Shown here: positions 8,785-20,688 of the stretch, one piece after another
Numbering within the stretch: position 1 is the stretch's first letter
Layout: each line of letters begins with the position of its first letter
From: an uncultured virus (IMG/VR IMGVR_UViG_3300046721_000269)
Lineage: Duplodnaviria > Heunggongvirae > Uroviricota > Caudoviricetes
Direction: 5' to 3' (one strand)
DNA: 64,000 nt
IMG/VR virus record: IMGVR_UViG_3300046721_000269
Position numbers and translations under genes: made by a program
The notes under the pieces: model-generated
Seen by the model: the letters and a program-made list of their open reading frames with translations, nothing else
What the model was told of the DNA's origin: nothing
Databases searched by the model: none

Positions 8785-9882
8785 ATGAGCAACGAGAACT
8801 TTGAGATAAGGGACGCTTCATCCTCGGTTATCATTCCAGTAGTTACTTCCTACGGGCCATCCGGGTCGGGCAAGACGCTCTCGATGATACTGTACGCGCG
8901 GGGGATAGTGGGTCCCAAGGGTCGGATCATCGTAGTGGACGCGGAGAACAAGCGGGCATCGATCTTTGCCGACCAGGTCCCCGGCGGTTACAAGGTGATT
9001 GATCTGGCCCCGCCGTTCACCCCCGACCGCTATTACGCGGCGATCATTGCAGCTCAAGAGAGGTCGGATATAACGGTGGTAGACTCGATGTCGCACGAGT
9101 GGGAGGGCCCGGGGGGCGTGCTGGATTGGCAGGAGCAAGAGTTGGATCGGCTGAGCAAAGGGGACGCGGACAAGGCGCAGCAGGTCAAGATGCTGTCCTG
9201 GTCGGCGCCCAAGCAGTCGCACAAAAGGCTCATGCGCTGGCTGGCGGCGACTTCCAAGCCTTTGATTCTCTGCTTTCGGGCGGAGCACAAGACGCATTTC
9301 GATGAGGACACAAGCCCGCCGTTGCCGGACGCGGTAGCGCGGCAGGCGGCGCGGGAGGAGCGGCGGCGCCGGACGGTTGTGAAGGACCGGTTCACAACGC
9401 CGATTGGGGCTAAGGAGCTGGTATGGGATTGCCTGATAACCTACGAGATGGTCCGTAAAGAGCGGGAAGGGCTCGAGCAGGGGGGCTTTGTGATAGCGCG
9501 CAAGTGGACGCACCCGGATTTGATGCGGGTATTGCCCAAGCCGGATGAGCAGGTGTCGATTAAGCACGGGGAAGCGCTGGCGGCATGGTGCTCGCGAGCG
9601 GCAGTGAAGGCGCCGCCGGCAAGTCCTCCTGCCGGCAGCAAGCCGGTTGAAGGAACGCGGACGGTTAGTGAACGCGATCGGCTCCTGGGTGAACTTCGGA
9701 GCCTGACCCGTGAACAGAGCGGTTGGGATGGCAAGGCGGCATCGTGGCCGCTGGCAAAGCAGCGGATGCAACAATGGCTCATAGACGAGGGGGTCCTGGG
9801 CGACACACAGATTTTGGACACGCTGACGGACGGTGAACTGGCCGGAGCGGTCCAGGCAACGAAAACGAAACTGCAAAAATGA
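8785..9882 (+). CDS. AAA-family ATPase, Sak4-like phage recombination protein
   Basis: Walker A GPSGSGKT, VDAEN, Walker B VVDSMSHEW.G.GG.L. Confidence 0.8.
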   Translation: MSNENFEIRDASSSVIIPVVTSYGPSGSGKTLSMILYARGIVGPKGRIIVVDAENKRASIFADQVPGGYKVIDLAPPFTPDRYYAAIIAAQERSDITVVDSMSHEWEGPGGVLDWQEQELDRLSKGDADKAQQVKMLSWSAPKQSHKRLMRWLAATSKPLILCFRAEHKTHFDEDTSPPLPDAVARQAAREERRRRTVVKDRFTTPIGAKELVWDCLITYEMVRKEREGLEQGGFVIARKWTHPDLMRVLPKPDEQVSIKHGEALAAWCSRAAVKAPPASPPAGSKPVEGTRTVSERDRLLGELRSLTREQSGWDGKAASWPLAKQRMQQWLIDEGVLGDTQILDTLTDGELAGAVQATKTKLQK

Positions 9883-11276
9883 AACCACTCAGACTCAAGA
9901 TCCATAACGTGGGCCTCATTGAGGACACGGTCATTGAAATCAACAAGCCGCTGCTGCTGTTCTATGGCGACATCCGGCAAGGGAAAACCACGATACTGAA
10001 TTGCGTGCGTTGGGTCCTGGGGGCGTCGAACTGGCCCGAGGACATCATCAGGCACGGGGCGGACGAGGCGTCGATAGAGTTCGAGTTTGATGGCGGGGTA
10101 GTGTCGCGCTCGTGGTACCGGAGCAAGGCCGGCAAGAGCAAGGGGACGACTCAGGCGCGGGAGACGACCTTCATTCGAAACGGGCGCCCGGTGGAGAGGC
10201 CGGCCAGCGAGTTATCGCGGCTGGTTAATCCGTTCCTGGTGGACCACGAGTATCTGAAGAAGATGAGCGAGGGGGAGCGCCGGCAATACTTCGTGGACTC
10301 TTTCCCGGTGGACACCAAGGACCTGGATACCGAGTCATTCAACAATGACAAGGAAGCGACCGAGCTGCGCGCCAAGGTGCGCGGGTATGGCCAGATCGAT
10401 TTGACGCCCGTGCCGGCGACCAGCACGCCGGACTTGAAGCGGCAACTGTCCGAAGCCAGGGCGGCGCATGCTGCTGGAATGACCAAGCTGGTCGAGGAAC
10501 AGGAGCAGCTCGAGAGGAAGTGGCGGACCGAGTCTGAGCTGATTGAGGATGAAAACGAGAAGCGCCGCGAACAGAACCGGCGGAACGCAGACGCTGAGTC
10601 ATACCTTCGGAGCATCAAAGCGCGGATAGCCGAGCTCGAGGCGGAGGCCGAGAAGGCGATCGCGGTGATGCGGGAGAACCCGGTTTTAGCGCTGGCACCA
10701 AAGCCGGAGAAACCTGAGGCGCTGGTCCAGCTTGCGCGCAAGGCTGCGGATTACCCGATAACAACGCCCGAGCTCGAGAAGCTGCAGGAAGCGGTAAACG
10801 AGTCGACGCTAAACGATGAGCGGCGCAAGGTGTTCCTGGCGAACAAAGCCAAGGCCGAGCAGAAGGAGCGGGAAGAGAAGCGCGTCCAGGAGTTGGAGGC
10901 CCGCGCGCGAGAAATCAAAAAGGAGAGGGTTGCCCGGTTAAGCAAGTGCGCGGAGGTAGTCCCCGGGCTGTCCTTTGCCGAGTCGGGGCAATTCACTTTC
11001 GAGGGGACCGACGCGGGGATGCTGAGCACATCGCAGATAATGCGGCTCTCGGAGATGCTGAGCGCGCTCTACCCTGAGGGGTTTGGGCTGAGCCTGATTG
11101 ACCGGGCTGAGAGCATGGGCAAATCCATCTTTGAATTCGTGGACCGGGCCAAGGCGGAGAAAAAGACGATCCTGGCAACCATCGTGGGCGAGGCGCCCGC
11201 GGCAGCGCCGGCTGAGGTCGGAGTCTTTGTGGTGGACCAGGGAAAGGTCACGTCCAAACAAACGGAGCTGATATGA
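9879..11276 (+). CDS. SMC/Rad50-like ATPase with central coiled coil
   Basis: GDIRQGKTT, long coiled coil, LSTSQ signature, LIDRAE Walker B. Confidence 0.75.
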   Translation: MKPLRLKIHNVGLIEDTVIEINKPLLLFYGDIRQGKTTILNCVRWVLGASNWPEDIIRHGADEASIEFEFDGGVVSRSWYRSKAGKSKGTTQARETTFIRNGRPVERPASELSRLVNPFLVDHEYLKKMSEGERRQYFVDSFPVDTKDLDTESFNNDKEATELRAKVRGYGQIDLTPVPATSTPDLKRQLSEARAAHAAGMTKLVEEQEQLERKWRTESELIEDENEKRREQNRRNADAESYLRSIKARIAELEAEAEKAIAVMRENPVLALAPKPEKPEALVQLARKAADYPITTPELEKLQEAVNESTLNDERRKVFLANKAKAEQKEREEKRVQELEARAREIKKERVARLSKCAEVVPGLSFAESGQFTFEGTDAGMLSTSQIMRLSEMLSALYPEGFGLSLIDRAESMGKSIFEFVDRAKAEKKTILATIVGEAPAAAPAEVGVFVVDQGKVTSKQTELI

Positions 11277-11521: not shown

Positions 11522-11718
11522 AGCTGCGTTACAAGTGCCGCCGTTGTGAAAAGGTGTTTTACGCCGGCGAGGACATGCCACAAAAGGAGGCATGGGACGA
11601 GCTGCTTAGAGCTCTTGTTGCGGGGGGGTCATCGAACCTTATGACTATCCATCCCTGTGACGGCGAGCGCGAGAGCACCAAAGCCTTTGGGCTTGCCGAC
11701 CTACAAGGAGCATCATGA
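11518..11718 (+). CDS. small zinc-ribbon-like protein
   Basis: MKLRYKCRRC...HPC...GLADLQG; GGAGG RBS, ATGA overlaps. Confidence 0.6.
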   Translation: MKLRYKCRRCEKVFYAGEDMPQKEAWDELLRALVAGGSSNLMTIHPCDGERESTKAFGLADLQGAS

Positions 11719-12713
11719 GCCCGTCACAATTCTTTGAGGTCAATCCTCTCAAGTTCGTCGACGGCCAGATCGTCGCGGAGAACGTCACAACCGAGGCTTA
11801 CCTCCGCCAGGACCCAAAGACAGGGAGGGGCCATCCTGACTTTGTCGTGAGCCGGTCGGAGCTGATGCTCTTCATGTCGAACCCTCAGCGCTGGATCCGC
11901 GGCTACGAGTTCAAAGACACGGCCGCGACCGAATGGGGCACGCTGATTGACTGCCTTGTCACGTGCAAGGGCGAGTTCGAGAAGCGCTTCGCCCTGACGC
12001 CCGAAACGTGCGAGGCCACAAAGACGATGAAGATCGTCAAAGAGGGAAAGGCACGGGCCGGCGACCAGGTCCCCTGGAGCCCAACGGCTACGGAGTGCAG
12101 GGAATGGAAAGAGGAGGCGGAGTCCCGTGGCTTGCAGATCGTGACTCGCAAGGAAATGGAGCAGGCCAATCAGGCGATCGCCGCGCTAAAGTCGGACGCC
12201 TGGATCGGGCACATGCTGGCTGAGGCTTCCTTCCAGGTCATGTGCATCGCGACCTATGAGGACAAGGACACAAAGGTCAAGGTCCCGCTCAAGTGCCTCG
12301 TAGACATTGTCCCATCGATGAAGGGGCAATACGCCAACGGCCTGACCGACTTCAAGACCGCCAGGACGGCATCGCCCAAGGAGTGGGAGAATGCCTGCAG
12401 GAAGCAGCACTACGACGTGCAGGGCGCGATGAGCCTGGATATCTGGTCCGCGTGCAAACCCAAAGAACGCTGGTGCTGGTATCACATCATTCAGGAAAAC
12501 GAATTTCCATGGCAACCCGCCCGCCGGTATATGTCCGATACGATGCTGGCGATGGGGCGGATCGATATGTGGCAGGCGCTCAAACGCTACTGCCGTTGCC
12601 TCAAGGAAAATCAGTGGCCGAGTTGGGATGACGAAGGCCCGCAAGTCGTCTACGGCTTTGGCCCGATAAACGCCAACAAATACCAGGCCGAGGAATACGG
12701 CCTCGGGCAATGA
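11715..12713 (+). CDS. PD-(D/E)XK exonuclease, RecE/ExoVIII-like (DUF3799-type)
   Basis: SRSEL, GTLID, KCLVD...DFKT, YDVQGA motifs; recombination module context. Confidence 0.8.
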   Translation: MSPSQFFEVNPLKFVDGQIVAENVTTEAYLRQDPKTGRGHPDFVVSRSELMLFMSNPQRWIRGYEFKDTAATEWGTLIDCLVTCKGEFEKRFALTPETCEATKTMKIVKEGKARAGDQVPWSPTATECREWKEEAESRGLQIVTRKEMEQANQAIAALKSDAWIGHMLAEASFQVMCIATYEDKDTKVKVPLKCLVDIVPSMKGQYANGLTDFKTARTASPKEWENACRKQHYDVQGAMSLDIWSACKPKERWCWYHIIQENEFPWQPARRYMSDTMLAMGRIDMWQALKRYCRCLKENQWPSWDDEGPQVVYGFGPINANKYQAEEYGLGQ

Positions 12714-14285: not shown

Positions 14286-14757
14286 CTGCGGCAGAGACTT
14301 CTTTCAAAGGCTCGGCAAGAAAGGCGTCCTGCTCGCGGCCATCGGCAAGAGCGGCGTGGGCAAAACGCAGCTTGCGGCCAACATCATTTACAACGTGGTG
14401 CGGCATACCGGAAGGTCCTGCCTCTACACGACCGCTCGCGACTTTTTCCTCGACCTCAAGGCGTGCTACCGCGCCGACGGGGAGCCTGAGCGGGAAGTCA
14501 TTGGGGAGTACTGCAAACCATCGTTCCTCGTCATCGACGAGTACGACAAGCGAAGCGGAAGCCAGTGGGAGGACGGAATGCTCGAGCACGTTATCAACCG
14601 CCGTTACGGCATGATGAAAGACACGATGCTCATAGCCAACTACAGCCAGCCGGCATTTGAAGAGGCGCTCGGGCCGGCCAACCTCTCGAGGTTGAACGAG
14701 GGCGGGCTCATGGCGGTATGCGACTGGCCAAGTTTCAGGGAGGCTGTGTGTGGCTGA
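14179..14757 (+). CDS. DnaC/IstB-like ATPase (helicase loader)
   Basis: GKSGVGKT, LVIDE, INRRY, SRL.E, W.SFR. Confidence 0.85.
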   Translation: MERVKTMDPEKLTDARVPRRYREQIQGHQGQGPWHDCGRDFFQRLGKKGVLLAAIGKSGVGKTQLAANIIYNVVRHTGRSCLYTTARDFFLDLKACYRADGEPEREVIGEYCKPSFLVIDEYDKRSGSQWEDGMLEHVINRRYGMMKDTMLIANYSQPAFEEALGPANLSRLNEGGLMAVCDWPSFREAVCG

Positions 14758-16127
14758 TCCCGGAGAAGCTGGCCCGACCCTGGTTAGCCTGTGTCGCGGG
14801 GTCGGATTACTCGACGAAGCCGTTAAACTGGTTTTTCCCGGAGCAACGACTCTATGTAGCGCGGAGTGGGAAAGCTACGCCAACGCCGTGTACCTGGCGC
14901 GGATGGAAGAATCGAGCGTGGACGCCCATCCTATTTGGATCGGAGATATTGCCGACCTCGAGCTTTCCGCGCTTCGTCGCCTTGTCTATATCCTCTGCGC
15001 GAGCCTCCCTTGCACGCCGTTCAGTTATGCCGGACTACGCACCGGAAACGACGATCCTCGAGCTTTTGGAGATGGCAGCGGACCAGCTCGACATTGTCTC
15101 CGGCTCATTGCCGAGTGTTGCCCCGCCCTGGTGTTCTTCGAGAACGCGCCAGCTTGGGTTAGAGGGCTTAGGGACAAGCGAAGCGGAAAAATCAACTATC
15201 CGTTCCTGGCTTTCGGAGCGGAATTATGCGGAATGGGTTACGAGCTCGTTGAACCGGTCTTTATCTCTGCGGACGATGTTAAAGGAGCGCACGAGCGCGA
15301 AAGAGTCTTTGTGCTGGCCTACCGCCACGGCCCGGATGGACTCCGGTGCAAACAATCGTTATCAGCGTGGCTGCGAGAAGGCAGGCAGGCAGTTGCAGGA
15401 AGAGGCGGCGAACTGGCAGACCCCGCGATCCAACGAGGCGGGAAACTTCACCAGGGATCACGGGGTACCGGGAATGGAACGGGACACGCTCTCGGGCCAG
15501 TCGGAGAAGTGGGCGACCCCGGACGCGCCGACGGGCGGCAGCAGGACCAGGAGCGACGAGGCGATGCAGCTGGGGCTTCACGGAACGGGAGCCAAGATGC
15601 AGGTGACACTGCAGGACCAGGCCAGCCGCTGGTCGACGCCCAGGGCGAGCGAGGGCGGTCCGGACTTTGCGAAACCGGAGCGGAGCAACACGGGGATGGG
15701 CTTGCCGGCACAAACGGCGAATTGGCCGACGGTCACAACAATGGACGGGGAGCAGGCCGGCGGGAGGGGCAGGAGGGAAAACCGGGGCAAGACAACACTC
15801 AGCCTCGAGACGGAGAACTGGCCGACGTGTCAGGCCAGGGACTACCGGAGCGGGGAGACGCGAAAGGACTACGGAAACTCCCGACCGTTGACGGAGGCAG
15901 TCCTCGAATTTTCGCTCCAGGGCCAAAAGATCCCCGATGGCAAGACATCCTCGAGTCCTGCCCGTGGCTCGCGCCCGCGGTTAAACCCGGCTTTCGCGTT
16001 ATGGTTGATGGGCGCCCCATGGTTCTGGACGAGGCCCGAATCGATCAGCTTCGGTGCACAGGTAACGCAGTTGTGGCAATTCAAGGCGCGTGTGCTCTTG
16101 TGGAGCTTCTTCGGAGAGCCGGAATAG
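14748..16127 (+). CDS. overlapping alternative-frame partner of the C5 MTase (WxTP repeats + motif IX)
   Basis: 1.4 kb open frame; six W[PQAS]T repeats; RLNPAFALWLMGAPWFWT; GTG 14748 shares the RBS with GTG 14750. Confidence 0.7.
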   Translation: MWLIPEKLARPWLACVAGSDYSTKPLNWFFPEQRLYVARSGKATPTPCTWRGWKNRAWTPILFGSEILPTSSFPRFVALSISSARASLARRSVMPDYAPETTILELLEMAADQLDIVSGSLPSVAPPWCSSRTRQLGLEGLGTSEAEKSTIRSWLSERNYAEWVTSSLNRSLSLRTMLKERTSAKESLCWPTATARMDSGANNRYQRGCEKAGRQLQEEAANWQTPRSNEAGNFTRDHGVPGMERDTLSGQSEKWATPDAPTGGSRTRSDEAMQLGLHGTGAKMQVTLQDQASRWSTPRASEGGPDFAKPERSNTGMGLPAQTANWPTVTTMDGEQAGGRGRRENRGKTTLSLETENWPTCQARDYRSGETRKDYGNSRPLTEAVLEFSLQGQKIPDGKTSSSPARGSRPRLNPAFALWLMGAPWFWTRPESISFGAQVTQLWQFKARVLLWSFFGEPE

Positions 16128-16132
16128 CATGA
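14750..16132 (+). CDS. DNA cytosine-5 methyltransferase, alpha-type polypeptide (motifs I-VIII, X)
   Basis: SLCRGVG (I), LPCTPFSYAG (IV), FFENAP (VI), HERERVF (VIII), CTGNAVV (X). Confidence 0.8.
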   Translation: MADPGEAGPTLVSLCRGVGLLDEAVKLVFPGATTLCSAEWESYANAVYLARMEESSVDAHPIWIGDIADLELSALRRLVYILCASLPCTPFSYAGLRTGNDDPRAFGDGSGPARHCLRLIAECCPALVFFENAPAWVRGLRDKRSGKINYPFLAFGAELCGMGYELVEPVFISADDVKGAHERERVFVLAYRHGPDGLRCKQSLSAWLREGRQAVAGRGGELADPAIQRGGKLHQGSRGTGNGTGHALGPVGEVGDPGRADGRQQDQERRGDAAGASRNGSQDAGDTAGPGQPLVDAQGERGRSGLCETGAEQHGDGLAGTNGELADGHNNGRGAGRREGQEGKPGQDNTQPRDGELADVSGQGLPERGDAKGLRKLPTVDGGSPRIFAPGPKDPRWQDILESCPWLAPAVKPGFRVMVDGRPMVLDEARIDQLRCTGNAVVAIQGACALVELLRRAGIA

Positions 16133-17556
16133 GACGTCAAGCGTCCGAGCCGTCACCGGACCGATTGCCGCCGAACTCACCAGAGGCGGAAGAATCGGCC
16201 CTGGGGTGCATTCTGATGGACGAAAAGCGCTCAGTGGAGTGCATCAGTCTTTTCGTTGAAAAGTTCGGTCCGAGCGCGCCGGATGCCTTCTACGACATGC
16301 GGCGCCAGACGATTTGGACCGCGATGCTCGAGCTTTACACGGCCGGGATCCGGGTCTACGTCATCAGCCTTGTCGATTATCTGCGAGACAAGCAACTGCT
16401 CGAGCAGGTCGGCGGGGTGGTTTACATTGCGCAGCTCGCGGACGTGTCCCCATCACCGGAAGCGCTGCCGACCTTCATTGATATCCTGATTGAGAAGCTG
16501 AGGCGCCGGCAAATGATCAAGGCCTGCGTTCAGGCCGTATCAACGCTCTACGAGGACGCGGAGGCGGACAGCGCCATGGACACCGTTGAGCGGTCCGTGA
16601 TGGAGGTCCGCAAAATTGGCGCAGCGGGACAACTGAAGCCGATCAAGGAAGTAGTTCAGGGGGCGATCGCGAGGATTGAGGACTTCCACCAGCGCAAGGG
16701 CATGCTAGTCGGGCTGTCTACCGGGTTTGCCGACATCGATAAAATGACCGGCGGGCTCGAGAATGGGACTTACAACATCATCGCGGCGCGCCCGAGCATG
16801 GGCAAGACCTCCCTGGCAATGAACATCGTTGAGCACGTGGCGATCGATCAACAGCTCTCGGTCGGAGTATTCAGCCTGGAAATGACGGTTGAATCGTTGG
16901 TGATGCGGATGCTTTGCTCCCGCGCCCGCGTGAACCTGCGCAATGTCCGTGACGGGTTCCTGGCCGAGCGGGACTTCCCGAAGCTCACCGGAGCGGCCGG
17001 CAAGATTGCCGTGAGCAACCTTTTTGTGGATGACGCCAACGGGCTCAGTGTGATGGAGCTGAGGGCTCGAGCGCGCCGGATGAAGATCCAGCACGGCATC
17101 AAATTATTAGTGATAGATTATGTGCAATTACTTATAGCCACGGTGAACGGCAGGAGGCCTGATAAGCGCGAGCGGGAAGTCTCCGAGGTTTCAGCCGGCA
17201 TCAAGGCACTTTCGAAGGAGCTCGCGATCCCGGTCCTGGCGATATGCCAGCTCAACCGCGAAATCGACCGCGCCAAACGAAAACCCGTCCTGGCGGACCT
17301 GAGGGAAAGCGGGAGCCTCGAGCAGGATGCAGACCTTGTTGGCATGTTGTACCGACCGCAAATCGACGATGAAAACAGAGAGCAAGATGAAGCTACGCCG
17401 GTGTGCCTGGACATAGCCAAGCAGAGGAATGGGCCTTCCGGTGAAGTCAAGCTGACCTTCCTCAAACCCTACACTCGGTTCGAGTCAGCGGCCAGGGTGA
17501 GTGACGAGGACATGCCAAATGACCAACAACACGACCTTGACTACCATGAGCGGTAA
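16129..17556 (+). CDS. dnaB: replicative DNA helicase DnaB
   Basis: PPNSPEAE, AARPSMGKT, FSLEM, IDYVQL, QLNRE, DLRESGSLEQDAD, AKQRNGP. Confidence 0.95.
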   Translation: MRRQASEPSPDRLPPNSPEAEESALGCILMDEKRSVECISLFVEKFGPSAPDAFYDMRRQTIWTAMLELYTAGIRVYVISLVDYLRDKQLLEQVGGVVYIAQLADVSPSPEALPTFIDILIEKLRRRQMIKACVQAVSTLYEDAEADSAMDTVERSVMEVRKIGAAGQLKPIKEVVQGAIARIEDFHQRKGMLVGLSTGFADIDKMTGGLENGTYNIIAARPSMGKTSLAMNIVEHVAIDQQLSVGVFSLEMTVESLVMRMLCSRARVNLRNVRDGFLAERDFPKLTGAAGKIAVSNLFVDDANGLSVMELRARARRMKIQHGIKLLVIDYVQLLIATVNGRRPDKREREVSEVSAGIKALSKELAIPVLAICQLNREIDRAKRKPVLADLRESGSLEQDADLVGMLYRPQIDDENREQDEATPVCLDIAKQRNGPSGEVKLTFLKPYTRFESAARVSDEDMPNDQQHDLDYHER

Positions 17557-17577: not shown

Positions 17578-18156
17578 ATGAAACGTGAGCCGCAAAGTCC
17601 GATCGCCAAGGCAATCCACTCGCTGATAAAGGGAACGTGCATCAAGCCCGAGACACTCGACGTTATTGAGACACTCAGGGACAATAAGCTCGAGCTCGTA
17701 TTCCTGCCGGATATGTGCGACTTCCGGATCCTGATCGGCAGCAAAGGCAAGACAATCACGGCGCTGCAGCACGTTGCTCAGGAAATGGGGCGCGGATCCG
17801 GACTCGAGGTCGGCCTGGAGTTGCGGGAATCCTACATCGGAGAGCGCCTTCCGATGAGCGACTTTGAACTAAATCCCGGATTCAAAGGGCCGGAAATGCT
17901 ACCCATCCTCGACCCGTTTTTAGAGCTGCTCTTCGACCCACTCCCAACGGTCCGATTCGAGGACAAAGGCGAGAAGCTCTACATCATCATCGACGTGCCG
18001 GAAGAAGAGCTGCCGCTAATCAAGGCAATGGGCGTAGCCTTTTACCCTTACGGGTTCAGGCACGGACGCAGGCTGAGCTTCCGGATCGTCGACTACCACG
18101 AAACTGAAAATGAGACACCAACAAACACCGACGGCGTTTCCCCTGGCGTGGCCTAA
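17578..18156 (+). CDS. KH-domain RNA-binding protein (KhpA-like, with degenerate second unit)
   Basis: DFRILIGSKGKTITALQ GxxG loop. Confidence 0.65.
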   Translation: MKREPQSPIAKAIHSLIKGTCIKPETLDVIETLRDNKLELVFLPDMCDFRILIGSKGKTITALQHVAQEMGRGSGLEVGLELRESYIGERLPMSDFELNPGFKGPEMLPILDPFLELLFDPLPTVRFEDKGEKLYIIIDVPEEELPLIKAMGVAFYPYGFRHGRRLSFRIVDYHETENETPTNTDGVSPGVA

Positions 18157-18700
18157 TGGCTGGCCAAAAACCGAGGACTACAAAAAGCAGGACGGGAGCT
18201 TCAAAACCGAGACGCCCCGGGCCCTGGCAAACCTCAAGCGAGAGCTCGACCTGATGAGGGCAAAGAACCTCGTGCTCTCGAGCAATTACACCCTGGGCGT
18301 GGAGAATCCCAAAGATTCCGGAGTGGTTGCTTATTTCGAGTGGGAGCAGACGCAGATGGCGATCCCCTGCGACCGTTACCGCCGGATAGCGCACAACATC
18401 CAGGCCATTGCCCTGACCATTGAGGCCATGCGCGGGATCGAGCGGTGGGGGGCCAAGCACATGATTAAGGCGATGTTCTCCGGCTTCAAACAGATCGGCA
18501 TGGGCCAGCATCACGAGGAGCCATTGCTCAAGTGGTGGGAGATTTTGAAATGTCCCCCTGAGTCAAATGGGGCGACCATCACCGAGGCTTACCGCCGGCG
18601 GATCAAAGAGGTTCACCCCGACAAGGGCGGCACCCAGGAAGAATTCATAAACGTGCAAGCCGCCTACGATCATGTTAAAAGCCTTGGCTACGTCCAATGA
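18110..18700 (+). CDS. phage J-domain (DnaJ-type) protein
   Basis: FPLAWP.GWP N-terminus, CDRY...N..AI..TIEA.R, C-terminal HPDKGG. Confidence 0.85.
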   Translation: MRHQQTPTAFPLAWPNGWPKTEDYKKQDGSFKTETPRALANLKRELDLMRAKNLVLSSNYTLGVENPKDSGVVAYFEWEQTQMAIPCDRYRRIAHNIQAIALTIEAMRGIERWGAKHMIKAMFSGFKQIGMGQHHEEPLLKWWEILKCPPESNGATITEAYRRRIKEVHPDKGGTQEEFINVQAAYDHVKSLGYVQ

Positions 18701-19128
18701 CCTCCGAAGATGAATACAGAGCAAAAGGATTTGTTAAGTGCAGTGATGGAAGCTGGTCCCATCCGTCACGTGTTGCACGTAAAGGGGATAACCCCCTCAT
18801 TCAAGACGCAAAAGACAGCGTACGGTTGGATAGACAAAAAGAGTGGGAAGATATTCGCAAGGCCAGCCACGCTCCCCGAGCACAAAGAGTGGATGCGCAA
18901 AACCGTCCTAGATTTCGCGTCACAATTACTTACCGCTTCGCAGATCGACGAGTCCACGACCTCGATGGATGCACGTCGACGCTCCTTGATTGCCTCATTG
19001 CCACACGACGATACTTGGACGGCGATCCCCGAGCAGATTTCAAGGGGAAGGCTGTGCGAACCAGGCGAGGAGCCAGGAGCGGAGATACTGATCGAACTGA
19101 TAGCGTGAAAGGCCCTGTGCCATTTTAA
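18697..19128 (+). CDS. rusA: RusA-like resolvase, frame carrying the DxD...D helix
   Basis: RVTITYRFADRRVHDLDGCTSTLLDCL. Confidence 0.5.
   Translation: MTSEDEYRAKGFVKCSDGSWSHPSRVARKGDNPLIQDAKDSVRLDRQKEWEDIRKASHAPRAQRVDAQNRPRFRVTITYRFADRRVHDLDGCTSTLLDCLIATRRYLDGDPRADFKGKAVRTRRGARSGDTDRTDSVKGPVPF
18710..19108 (+). CDS. rusA: RusA-like resolvase, overlapping frame carrying N-terminal strand/helix and C-terminal DD + strands
   Basis: LHVKGITPSFK...T..HKEW...; LPHDDTW..I...GAEILIE. Confidence 0.5.
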   Translation: MNTEQKDLLSAVMEAGPIRHVLHVKGITPSFKTQKTAYGWIDKKSGKIFARPATLPEHKEWMRKTVLDFASQLLTASQIDESTTSMDARRRSLIASLPHDDTWTAIPEQISRGRLCEPGEEPGAEILIELIA

Positions 19129-19132
19129 CCCT

Positions 19133-19360
19133 ATGAGCGTCCCGATAGAGAAAATCACCGAGGAACGGCTGGCCCGATGGAAACGGCGCATGAAGGAATC
19201 GCACGCTACGCCGATCGTCCTGATGGGCGTGGGGCACGATCACAAATGCGGTGAGATTGTGGTCTGCATCCCTGAGGACGTGGATAATGCGCTTGTCCTG
19301 GCCACGCTCTGCTTTGCGGTCGAGCAGCTCGCCCCGGGCACAATCCGGAAAGCAACGTGA
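19133..19360 (+). CDS. hypothetical protein
   Basis: 75 aa, GTGA overlap with next gene. Confidence 0.55.
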   Translation: MSVPIEKITEERLARWKRRMKESHATPIVLMGVGHDHKCGEIVVCIPEDVDNALVLATLCFAVEQLAPGTIRKAT

Positions 19361-20688
19361 TCATTCCCCACAAACTTCTTGGAGATGCCCGAGCCAAACT
19401 TGCCGAGCTGCCGGAGAACTCTTTCCAGCTCTGTGTGACCAGCCCCCCCTACTGGGGCTTGCGCTCCTACCTGCCGGCCAATCATCCACTAAAGCATTTG
19501 GAGATTGGGACCGAGGACACGCTCGAGCAATACCTTGCCAACCTGGTCGAAGTGTTTACCGCGGTTCACCGGGTGCTCCGAGACGACGGGCTTTTGTGGG
19601 TGAACATGGGGGACCGCTGGACGGCTGGCTCGCGCCGGCAATACGATCGGTGCGCCAAAATCATGGGGCGGGATGAGAAGCATCCGGCCAACGGAGTGTT
19701 TCGCCCGATGGACCCGACCGGGCTCAAGATTAAAGAGCTGTGCTTGCTCCCTCAGCGCGTAGCGATCGCCCTGCAGGAGTCCGGCTGGTATCTGCGTTGC
19801 ATGTGCCCCTGGATAAAGCGCAACTGCATGCCTGAGAGCGTTAAGGACCGGCCAGTCAATGCGCTCGAGTATTTCTTCATGTTCTCAAAGCAGCGGTTCT
19901 ACTACTACGACCGAGACGCAGTGACCGTGCGGGCCTCGGACAACACGCACCCCAGGGCCGCGGTTTTCCCGCACAGAGAGACGCGCAACGACAATAACCG
20001 GAGACGCCGGCGGACAAACCCTAAGGCGGCACTGGCTCAAATCGGGGTGAAACAAAACCCCTCCTTCCAGGAAGCGACGAGCGACTATCTTCCGAGCCGC
20101 CGGAACTGGCGCAACACAGACCTGTTCATGCAATCGTGGGAGGGCCTGCTTGGGGACGAGAACGGGGACCCGCTCGCCCTGGTGGTAAACCCAAAGGGGA
20201 CCACGATGAGTCACTACGCGAGTTACCCGGTTTCGCTGATACGGCCAATCATCCAGGCGTCCACGTCGGAGGGCGGTTGCTGCTCGAACTGCGGGGCGCC
20301 GAGAATAAGGGTCGTAGAGGTCGGGGAGGCGGACATCGAACGCCAGCGCCAGTGCGGAGGCGACCTCCTGGGCGAATATCACGGCCAGGCCAAAAAAGAC
20401 TTCAAAGGGAACGGGGTTCAGGACGCCAGCGACGTTAAGCGGCGGATACTGGCCGGCATGCGCGAGCGTAAGACGGTCGGATGGAACCCAGGATGCACGT
20501 GCGATCGGGATCAAATGTGCTCGCTCATATCGAAGCCATGCTCAGTGATCGACCCATTTCACGGGACGGGCACAACCGCGCAAGCCTGTGTTGAGCTGGG
20601 GCGCCACTACACCGGCATTGAGATTTCCGAGGACTACTTCAAGGACTCGGACCGAAAAGACAGCCAAACTGCACTATCGATCGTTTAA
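19357..20688 (+). CDS. DNA N4-cytosine/N6-adenine methyltransferase (beta class)
   Basis: VTSPPYWGLR, HYASYP, DPFHGTGTT, GIEIS; Cys-rich insert. Confidence 0.9.
   Translation: MIIPHKLLGDARAKLAELPENSFQLCVTSPPYWGLRSYLPANHPLKHLEIGTEDTLEQYLANLVEVFTAVHRVLRDDGLLWVNMGDRWTAGSRRQYDRCAKIMGRDEKHPANGVFRPMDPTGLKIKELCLLPQRVAIALQESGWYLRCMCPWIKRNCMPESVKDRPVNALEYFFMFSKQRFYYYDRDAVTVRASDNTHPRAAVFPHRETRNDNNRRRRRTNPKAALAQIGVKQNPSFQEATSDYLPSRRNWRNTDLFMQSWEGLLGDENGDPLALVVNPKGTTMSHYASYPVSLIRPIIQASTSEGGCCSNCGAPRIRVVEVGEADIERQRQCGGDLLGEYHGQAKKDFKGNGVQDASDVKRRILAGMRERKTVGWNPGCTCDRDQMCSLISKPCSVIDPFHGTGTTAQACVELGRHYTGIEISEDYFKDSDRKDSQTALSIV

Follow-up and report, generated by a model that had tools for sequence, protein, structure and literature searches.

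Whether a single stretch of about 400 nucleotides (nt) can encode, in two overlapping reading frames, two complementary parts of one nuclease is the question raised by positions 18697 to 19128 of a 64,000-nt piece of DNA from an uncultured virus of the Caudoviricetes (IMG/VR record IMGVR_UViG_3300046721_000269), the whole of which is called the window here. An earlier note, made from the sequence alone, had described two ATG open reading frames (ORFs) with start codons 13 nt apart and had proposed that the active-site elements of a RusA-like resolvase of Holliday junctions are divided between them. Both points held in our analysis. ORF A (18697..19128, plus strand) encodes 143 amino acids (aa) and ORF B (18710..19108, plus strand) encodes 132 aa; ORF B lies in the +1 frame relative to ORF A, and its full 399 nt are contained within ORF A. 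Residues 73–107 of ORF A (nt 18913–19017) read FRVTITYRFADRRVHDLDGCTSTLLDCLIATRRYL, and ORF B bears HVLHVKGITPSFKTQK, a long helix, PHDDTW and a terminal pair of strands. The named motifs were thus found in the frames to which they had been assigned, with the middle strand and the DxD helix in A and the first strand, the DD motif and two further strands in B. We consider it likely that this locus encodes a two-chain composite RusA-like resolvase, with the binding of the chains and the activity of the pair being predicted properties.

Homologues that keep both frames open, on whose existence the proposal depended, were found. The DNA of relatives was fetched by peptide patterns taken from B (for part of the loci, from B alone) and from A, and both frames were open in all 23 distinct ORF B-family loci of phage or metagenome origin, with the third frame (+2) being full of stops. 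The set included loci in which ORF B shared only 30–40% identity with that of the window, and even at this distance the frame A motif FR[IV]T[IV]..[SA]D.R.RD.DG..ST[LI]LDC[LI]I.A.RR was kept. The G+C content was 0.48–0.58 across the loci and only 53% in the A/B region of the window, so that composition gives no reason to expect long alternative frames to be open. Compensating sequencing indels, which the earlier note had named as a possible refutation, are excluded because independent assemblies showed 0 gaps against the stretch, which X3 and X4 cover over its whole length and X6 and X8 in part. A sequencing artefact was therefore ruled out, both by these assemblies and by the relatives with two open frames. 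The same DNA was present in many soil and rhizosphere metagenome runs.

To separate the constraint on one frame from that on the other, synonymous codons were permuted within each sequence while the protein and the codon usage of one frame were held fixed (16 loci, overlap only, 200 shuffles). With B fixed, frame A contained 0 stops in 16/16 loci, compared with a mean of 43.5 (minimum 31) in the shuffles, and its identity was 0.299 vs 0.175±0.005 in the 91 of 120 pairs that shared less than 45% identity in B, an excess with a z-score of about 25. With A fixed, frame B contained 0 stops vs 17.9, and its identity was 0.349 vs 0.177±0.004 (112/120 pairs). The seven further loci were also open in both frames, the chance of which was 0.005–0.108 per locus. 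In both directions, conservation exceeded what the fixed frame imposes.

In sliding windows, the conservation of the two frames was complementary. Constraint on ORF B extended from end to end and weakened at residues 80–89 (z 4.2, identity 0.25 vs 0.20), and ORF A was conserved only at about residues 66–110, the core, where z reached 21; the first 60 residues and the tail of A showed no excess conservation. The linker of A (residues 26–65), with z of −1 to 3 and no conservation of its own, overlies the conserved strand 1, PSFKTQK loop and helix 1 of B. At each border, both frames were constrained across the same 10–15 codons. Judged by its sequence and that of its relatives, the 400-nt stretch is a genuine conserved dual-coding locus of a soil phage.

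A search with ORF A returned a single called homologue (P0021) among 5.8 billion clusters. Since only one A protein has been called as against many B homologues, annotation pipelines report B and miss A. By profile comparison, 13 of the 17 A members matched phrog_34, a family of RusA-like Holliday junction resolvases (best E value 9.7e-5). When the A profile was aligned with hhalign, the E value was 3.8e-5 against E. coli RusA and 1.9e-5 against a set of 20 RusA sequences, in which residues 61–115 of A fell on residues 43–97 of RusA. The alignment placed D88 and D90 of A on D70 and D72 of RusA, the two aspartates of the D.D motif that follows strand 2, and D98 of A on D80. The sole match of the A profile to a sequence in the PDB was also E. 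coli RusA (1q8r, residues 56–98), at a nonsignificant E value of 0.88. Passages of two papers on RusA (PMC1636454, PMC10956419) name D70, D72, K76 and D90/D91 as critical residues and place the metal site at the dimer interface. In A, residues D88, D90, D98 and C99 were invariant in the 17 sequences. These alignments indicate that the core of A is homologous to strand 2, the DxD motif and helix 2 of RusA.

Outside the core, A begins with one of three subfamily-specific N-terminal types, namely [DE]ELRAKGF..PDGS[WY], FPNASESFKRRNPHL and MPTWT.E[QN]L.AYE. These motifs occupy about the first 20 residues, where B is unconserved. The type carried by the window recurs in P0021 and in loci L003, L007, L008, L010, L012, L019 and L028, and it reached a predicted local distance difference test score (pLDDT) of 83–87 in the AlphaFold2 (AF2) model of A alone. 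In that model, whose overall pLDDT was 62, residues 28–66 were disordered and the core was unsupported. The tail of A ends in P-[VLP]-P-F beyond the stop codon of B (window 19114–19128), an ending common to the window, P0021, L001, L002, L008, L010 and L012; it may act as a docking motif, or it may have arisen as a by-product of the start region of the next gene. In addition, 11 of the 17 A proteins matched phrog_1532 (80 aa, function not assigned) over profile positions 3–45, with a best E value of 1e-4, and short core-only proteins akin to A may already lie unannotated in sequenced phages.

ORF B belongs to a large family. Its search returned 19 full-length homologues with 45–78% identity, and a profile search collected 446 representative clusters at E ≤ 1e-3, 368 of them at E ≤ 1e-10. 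The D100/D101 pair was invariant in 32 sequences, and D101 was invariant in 150 representatives. Among these 150, the sole significant Pfam match was a helix-turn-helix (HTH) domain in one member, and none carried an A-type motif in the frame of B itself. None of the 32 B members matched the RusA-like families of PHROG, nothing relevant was found with the B profile among PDB sequences, and a scan of genome contigs for B found none. With tblastn, neither A nor B had a match among 50,697 GenBank phages.

The link between B and RusA was provided by locus L031, which was retrieved by an N-terminal B pattern and encodes a RusA-like protein of 134 aa in a single frame. This locus is closed in its other frames (−1 frame: 13 codons). 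The L031 protein matched the RusA-like families phrog_1682, phrog_11894, phrog_34 and phrog_21721 with E values of 2.5e-10, 2e-5, 3.4e-5 and 1.9e-4. The B profile in turn matched L031 end to end in hhalign, with E values of 3.5e-11 for 150 sequences (probability 97.2, B residues 28–128) and 2.5e-9 for 32. The alignment spans VPS.KN.K, helix 1, DDNW..PEI and the last strand, and sets DD.W..PE of B on DDNW..PE of L031, whereby D100/D101 of B would take the place of Asp90/Asp91 before strand 3 of RusA. Thus, B is, by this alignment, homologous to the single-frame RusA-like protein of L031. In the L031 gene itself (L031:1480–1884), which lies on an AT-rich phage contig, D-L-T-N-K stands in place of D.D. 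Just upstream (L031:824–1423) is a Cys-rich ORF with an ...HH...H... pattern that looks, by eye, like an HNH-type nuclease. The AF2 model of B alone (pLDDT 67) had no strand at the place of RusA strand 2, and residues 77–86 were mostly coil. A Foldseek search of this model of moderate quality gave no match in the PDB at E ≤ 0.001, and the ESM Atlas gave no usable match for B at a predicted template modelling score of 0.26.

According to the models, neither chain folds convincingly alone. Co-folding, by contrast with mismatched controls, joined the two: residues 15–132 of B with residues 60–116 of A gave an interface score (ipSAE) of 0.76 (runs of 0.69, 0.76 and 0.76), compared with a best value of 0.00 in three controls. 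The runs agreed in at least 88% of contacts, the partner pLDDT was at least 68, and with unrelated partners the pLDDT of either chain dropped to 38–41. In calibration, 116 of 157 solved pairs were recovered vs 2 of 215 mismatched pairs, figures that hold only roughly here because custom alignments were used. In the predicted complex, the strand of A (residues 73–79) runs antiparallel to the last strand of B (124–129) and the helix of A (99–103) lies on the helix of B (65–70), with the DxD motif of A, the PS.K loop of B and the DD motif of B among the interface residues. The co-fold supports binding between A and B in a predicted complex.

Several results weigh against a two-chain resolvase. 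The Pfam RusA family (PF05866) was matched by 0/17 A members, 0/32 B members and 0/150 B-family representatives, even at E ≤ 10 or E ≤ 1; the expected RusA profile match was obtained for A through PHROG and hhalign and for B through L031, and for neither through Pfam. B had no direct similarity to enterobacterial RusA in hhalign, and its tie to RusA therefore rests on one intermediate, L031, whose DD aligns collinearly with D90/D91 in a weak match to E. coli RusA (E 0.023). The Asn and Lys that follow DxD in helix 2 of RusA are absent, as had been pointed out before: A has G and S/T (D.DG..(S/T/A)) where RusA has N73 and K76, the N being present only in L006. The second Asp of D.D is also replaced in 2/23 loci, L027 (DNP) and L028 (DAW), and together these changes make catalysis uncertain. 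The helix in these two loci reads ..CDAII and ..IADCIV, respectively, and the two lineages may be inactive or differently wired variants. The co-fold score is a model confidence and may reflect likeness to the solved RusA fold. When the blocks were concatenated in RusA order, the hhalign score rose from 35.3 for the core alone to 46.2 (E 2e-7) and the match extended into helix 1 of B, a modest gain considering that swapped and reversed controls reached 39.8 and 38.3; the spliced chimera thus matched RusA better than the core did, by little over its controls. One point in favor of the two chains also has a limit: the unconserved N-terminal part of A was open in 16/16 loci, with a per-locus chance of 0.04–0.67 and a product of 2e-13, which overstates independence because the loci are related to one another. 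Finally, no RNA run is on record among the 24 listed runs that contain the stretch.

The earlier note had left the mechanism between a complementing two-chain nuclease and a double frameshift, and the way in which the frames begin bears on this choice. An ATG or GTG for ORF A lies 4–34 nt upstream of the ATG of B in 16/16 loci; in the window, the ATG of A shares bases with the TGA of the upstream gene (18698–18700) as ATGA. The stop of the upstream ORF overlaps the start of A in 7 loci and that of B in 4, abuts the start of A in 2 and precedes it by 10 nt in 1, and 2 loci have no upstream ORF of at least 60 aa. With a stop adjacent to both starts, ribosomes ending there probably re-initiate in either frame. 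A double programmed frameshift, from B to A (−1) before strand 2 and from A to B (+1) after helix 2, would instead give one RusA chain, and both the order of conservation along the DNA (B, A, B) and the fact that concatenation in this order gave the best RusA match would fit it. Such an event leaves several observations unexplained, and we regard it as very improbable. Only 3/16 loci have a canonical X_XXY_YYZ heptamer in the phase of B in the 120 nt that precede the core, and its place differs among them. To include both frames where they are constrained at the borders, a single chain would need two re-readings of about 30 nt. A is also open for 46–88 codons upstream of its core, with a start codon in all 16 loci, which a frameshift would not need, and its N-terminal motifs are conserved within subfamilies. 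A single frameshift fusion, made besides or in place of a plain product and joining, for example, the N-terminal half of B to the core of A as in dnaX or the phage tail chaperones, would account for the common start region; given the same lack of a conserved slippery site and the start and N-terminal motif that A has of its own, we think it quite improbable. Two independently initiated chains are therefore favored over frameshifting, and of the two proposed mechanisms the complementing pair agrees with the starts, the border constraint and the co-fold.

That both proteins are real while the pair is not an active resolvase is unlikely in our view, and still the likeliest of the rival readings. 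A could then be a regulator, a tether or a binder of junctions that uses a RusA remnant without catalysis, or the two proteins could each work on their own, which would suit the missing N73/K76, the loss of the second Asp in L027 and L028, and the extra N-terminal motifs and basic tail of A. It would not readily explain why D88, D90, D98 and C99 of A are invariant in the 17 sequences (D90 being lost in the later loci L027 and L028) and the DD of B in 32, nor why the co-fold interface contains the DxD, the PS.K loop and the DD motif. Moreover, canonical RusA (PF05866) was absent from all five records of related phages, four of them with a completeness of 98% or more, other resolvase families not having been searched. 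The idea that frame A is untranslated, with its openness and conservation arising as a side effect of the sequence of B, of codon usage or of an RNA element, draws on the near-absence of A from gene calls and the lack of an RNA run noted above. We hold it to be extremely improbable, since shuffles that keep the protein and codon usage of B leave the open frame and its conservation unexplained, the part that is conserved can be read as a piece of RusA whose aspartates are invariant, and an RNA element would not keep the amino acids of one frame at 30–40% B identity.

For the two-chain resolvase, we propose the following arrangement. Two polypeptides would be made from the two start codons, ribosomes that terminate at the upstream gene re-initiating at either of them. 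Chain B would supply the RusA-type first strand, PS.K loop, helix 1, DD motif and last two strands, with a poorly conserved linker at the expected place of strand 2, DxD and helix 2. Chain A would consist of a tether flanking strand 2, the metal-binding aspartates of DxD and helix 2, together with its own small N-terminal motif. In the predicted assembly, the strand of A inserts beside the last strand of B and the helix of A packs on helix 1 of B, so that a RusA-like fold would be rebuilt around an acidic active site common to both chains (D88/D90 of A and D100/D101 of B). With DxD on A and DD on B, the catalytic acids of RusA would therefore be divided between the chains, and the elements that RusA holds on one polypeptide (a four-stranded sheet and two helices) are here spread over two chains and two frames. 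The A–B assembly would presumably dimerise like RusA, whose dimer makes symmetric, Mg2+-dependent cuts in Holliday junctions, and would cut such junctions or branched phage DNA. The translation of A, re-initiation, the stoichiometry and nuclease activity are what we infer.

Scans of the neighbors against Pfam and PHROG, with no Pfam RusA match among them, showed that the A/B stretch lies in a phage replication and recombination module, and the coordinates of the features are collected in Table 1.

Table 1. Features of the A/B locus and of its surroundings in the window.
Feature	Position	Strand	Evidence or remark
AAA_23 ATPase	9879–11276		
PDDEXK nuclease	11715–12713		
HTH protein			follows the PDDEXK nuclease
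IstB-like loader			follows the HTH protein
C5 methylase			follows the IstB-like loader
DnaB helicase	16090–17556		
KH protein			between DnaB helicase and DnaJ-domain protein
DnaJ-domain protein, upstream gene	18110..18700	+	phrog_9210 (E 4e-45)
ORF A: N-terminal motif, unconserved linker, RusA-like core, basic tail	18697..19128	+	
ORF A residues 1–25, small N-terminal motif DEYRAKGFVKCSDGSW	18697..18771	+	AF2 model, recurrence in relatives
ORF A residues 26–65, linker kept stop-free	18772..18891	+	shuffles, per-locus openness, pLDDT <50
ORF A residues 66–110, RusA-like core	18892..19026	+	shuffle z up to 21, phrog_34, hhalign
ORF A core strand FRVTITYRF	18913–18939		
ORF A core D88	18958–18960		
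ORF A core D90	18964–18966		
ORF A core helix, residues 92–107, with invariant D98-C99	18970–19017	+	
ORF A residues 111–143, variable basic tail	19027..19128	+	no excess conservation
ORF B, 132 aa	18710..19108	+	large family without Pfam domain
ORF B residues 19–76: strand 1, PSFKTQK loop (18794–18814), hairpin, helix 1 (18875–18937)	18764..18937	+	z 6–18
ORF B residues 77–91, weakly conserved linker	18938..18982	+	over best-conserved part of ORF A
ORF B residues 92–132: SLIASLPHDDTW, invariant D100/D101 (19007–19012), then two strands	18983..19105	+	
Downstream small ORF, 75 aa	19133..19360	+	no family; begins 5 nt past ORF A stop
N6/N4 methylase	19357–20688		follows the 75-aa ORF

The DnaJ-domain protein is also the upstream neighbor in L002, and some members of the family may have kept it paired with A/B. 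On the minus strand, an ORF of 141 aa (18766..19191) lies over the A/B stretch and had no family match. As a gene it was rejected, because it is not kept among the relatives: depending on the locus, the longest stop-free antisense stretch covered 55–144 of 115–166 codons. This antisense ORF is probably a by-product of the two open sense frames. Elsewhere in the window (14718–16132), a second pair of near-coextensive plus-strand ORFs was observed, 14718..16127 (469 aa) and 14750..16132 (460 aa). The 14750 frame matched C-5 DNA methylase, over only profile positions 3–164 of 324, and the 14718 frame had no Pfam family match even at E ≤ 10. The parallel that the earlier note had drawn with a split methyltransferase of the same architecture found no support in these Pfam searches.

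Among known systems, the closest is RusA itself (E. coli DLP12 and phage 82; PDB 1Q8R; PF05866). It shares the order of elements (strand, PS-loop, helix, strand, D.D, helix, DD, two strands), the small size and a position downstream of phage replication genes, and, according to the passages on its structure in PMC1636454, the metal site of RusA already lies at a subunit interface. RusA is, however, one chain of 120 aa from one frame, whereas here two chains come from overlapping frames, N73/K76 are not kept and the Pfam family is unmatched. The L031 protein is homologous to B over its full length and has VPS.KN.K, DDNW..PEI and the last strand in common with it, but its one frame also encodes strand 2, D-L-T-N-K and helix 2, and it shows the form of an unsplit relative.

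Proteins from overlapping frames that work together are known. The spanins Rz and Rz1 of lambda are encoded in overlapping plus-strand frames and bind each other for one job; Rz1 is a short gene lying within Rz, and both are membrane proteins with no relation to each other, whereas the frames here are near-coextensive and would hold pieces of one ancestral fold. Human MOCS2A and MOCS2B are two subunits of one enzyme from overlapping frames of one transcript, but their overlap is short and they form two separate complete folds, not interleaved parts of one domain. In dnaX, the IS3 transposases and the tail assembly chaperones, two frames of one locus also contribute, although these systems rely on a slippery site that is conserved and yield a trans-frame fusion; in the A/B family no such site is conserved and the frames have their own starts. 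The PRFect paper lists 'RusA/RuvC' among frameshift genes, and the junction-resolvase reference found in its reference list is the 1991 ruvC paper. A full-text search of the literature found no paper tying RusA to overlapping or dual coding, and the two-frame RusA arrangement seems not to have been described before.

Beyond the single locus, an ancestral one-chain RusA may have been re-encoded across a phage family (446 clusters) as two interleaved chains, in which one frame encodes a tether wherever the other encodes a folded element, the enzyme exists only after assembly and the ratio of the chains is set by the choice of start that a re-initiating ribosome makes. We regard this wider account as an even call. 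If true, it would be the first case known of a protein fold shared out over reading frames, and second chains of this kind would be seen to escape standard gene calling.

The usual description of overlapping genes is that of an old gene overprinted by a new and unrelated protein, which is often disordered. At this locus, the two frames instead appear to hold complementary pieces of a single old enzyme, and this is conserved in phages that have diverged widely. The locus thereby offers a concrete case in which to study the constraints that dual coding places on protein evolution and the choice of start codon after translational coupling. If confirmed, a 'hypothetical protein' family of 446 clusters without a Pfam domain would turn out to be half a resolvase whose other half has been called only once among 5.8 billion clusters, and the arrangement would be a new way of encoding an enzyme and a natural split-protein system.

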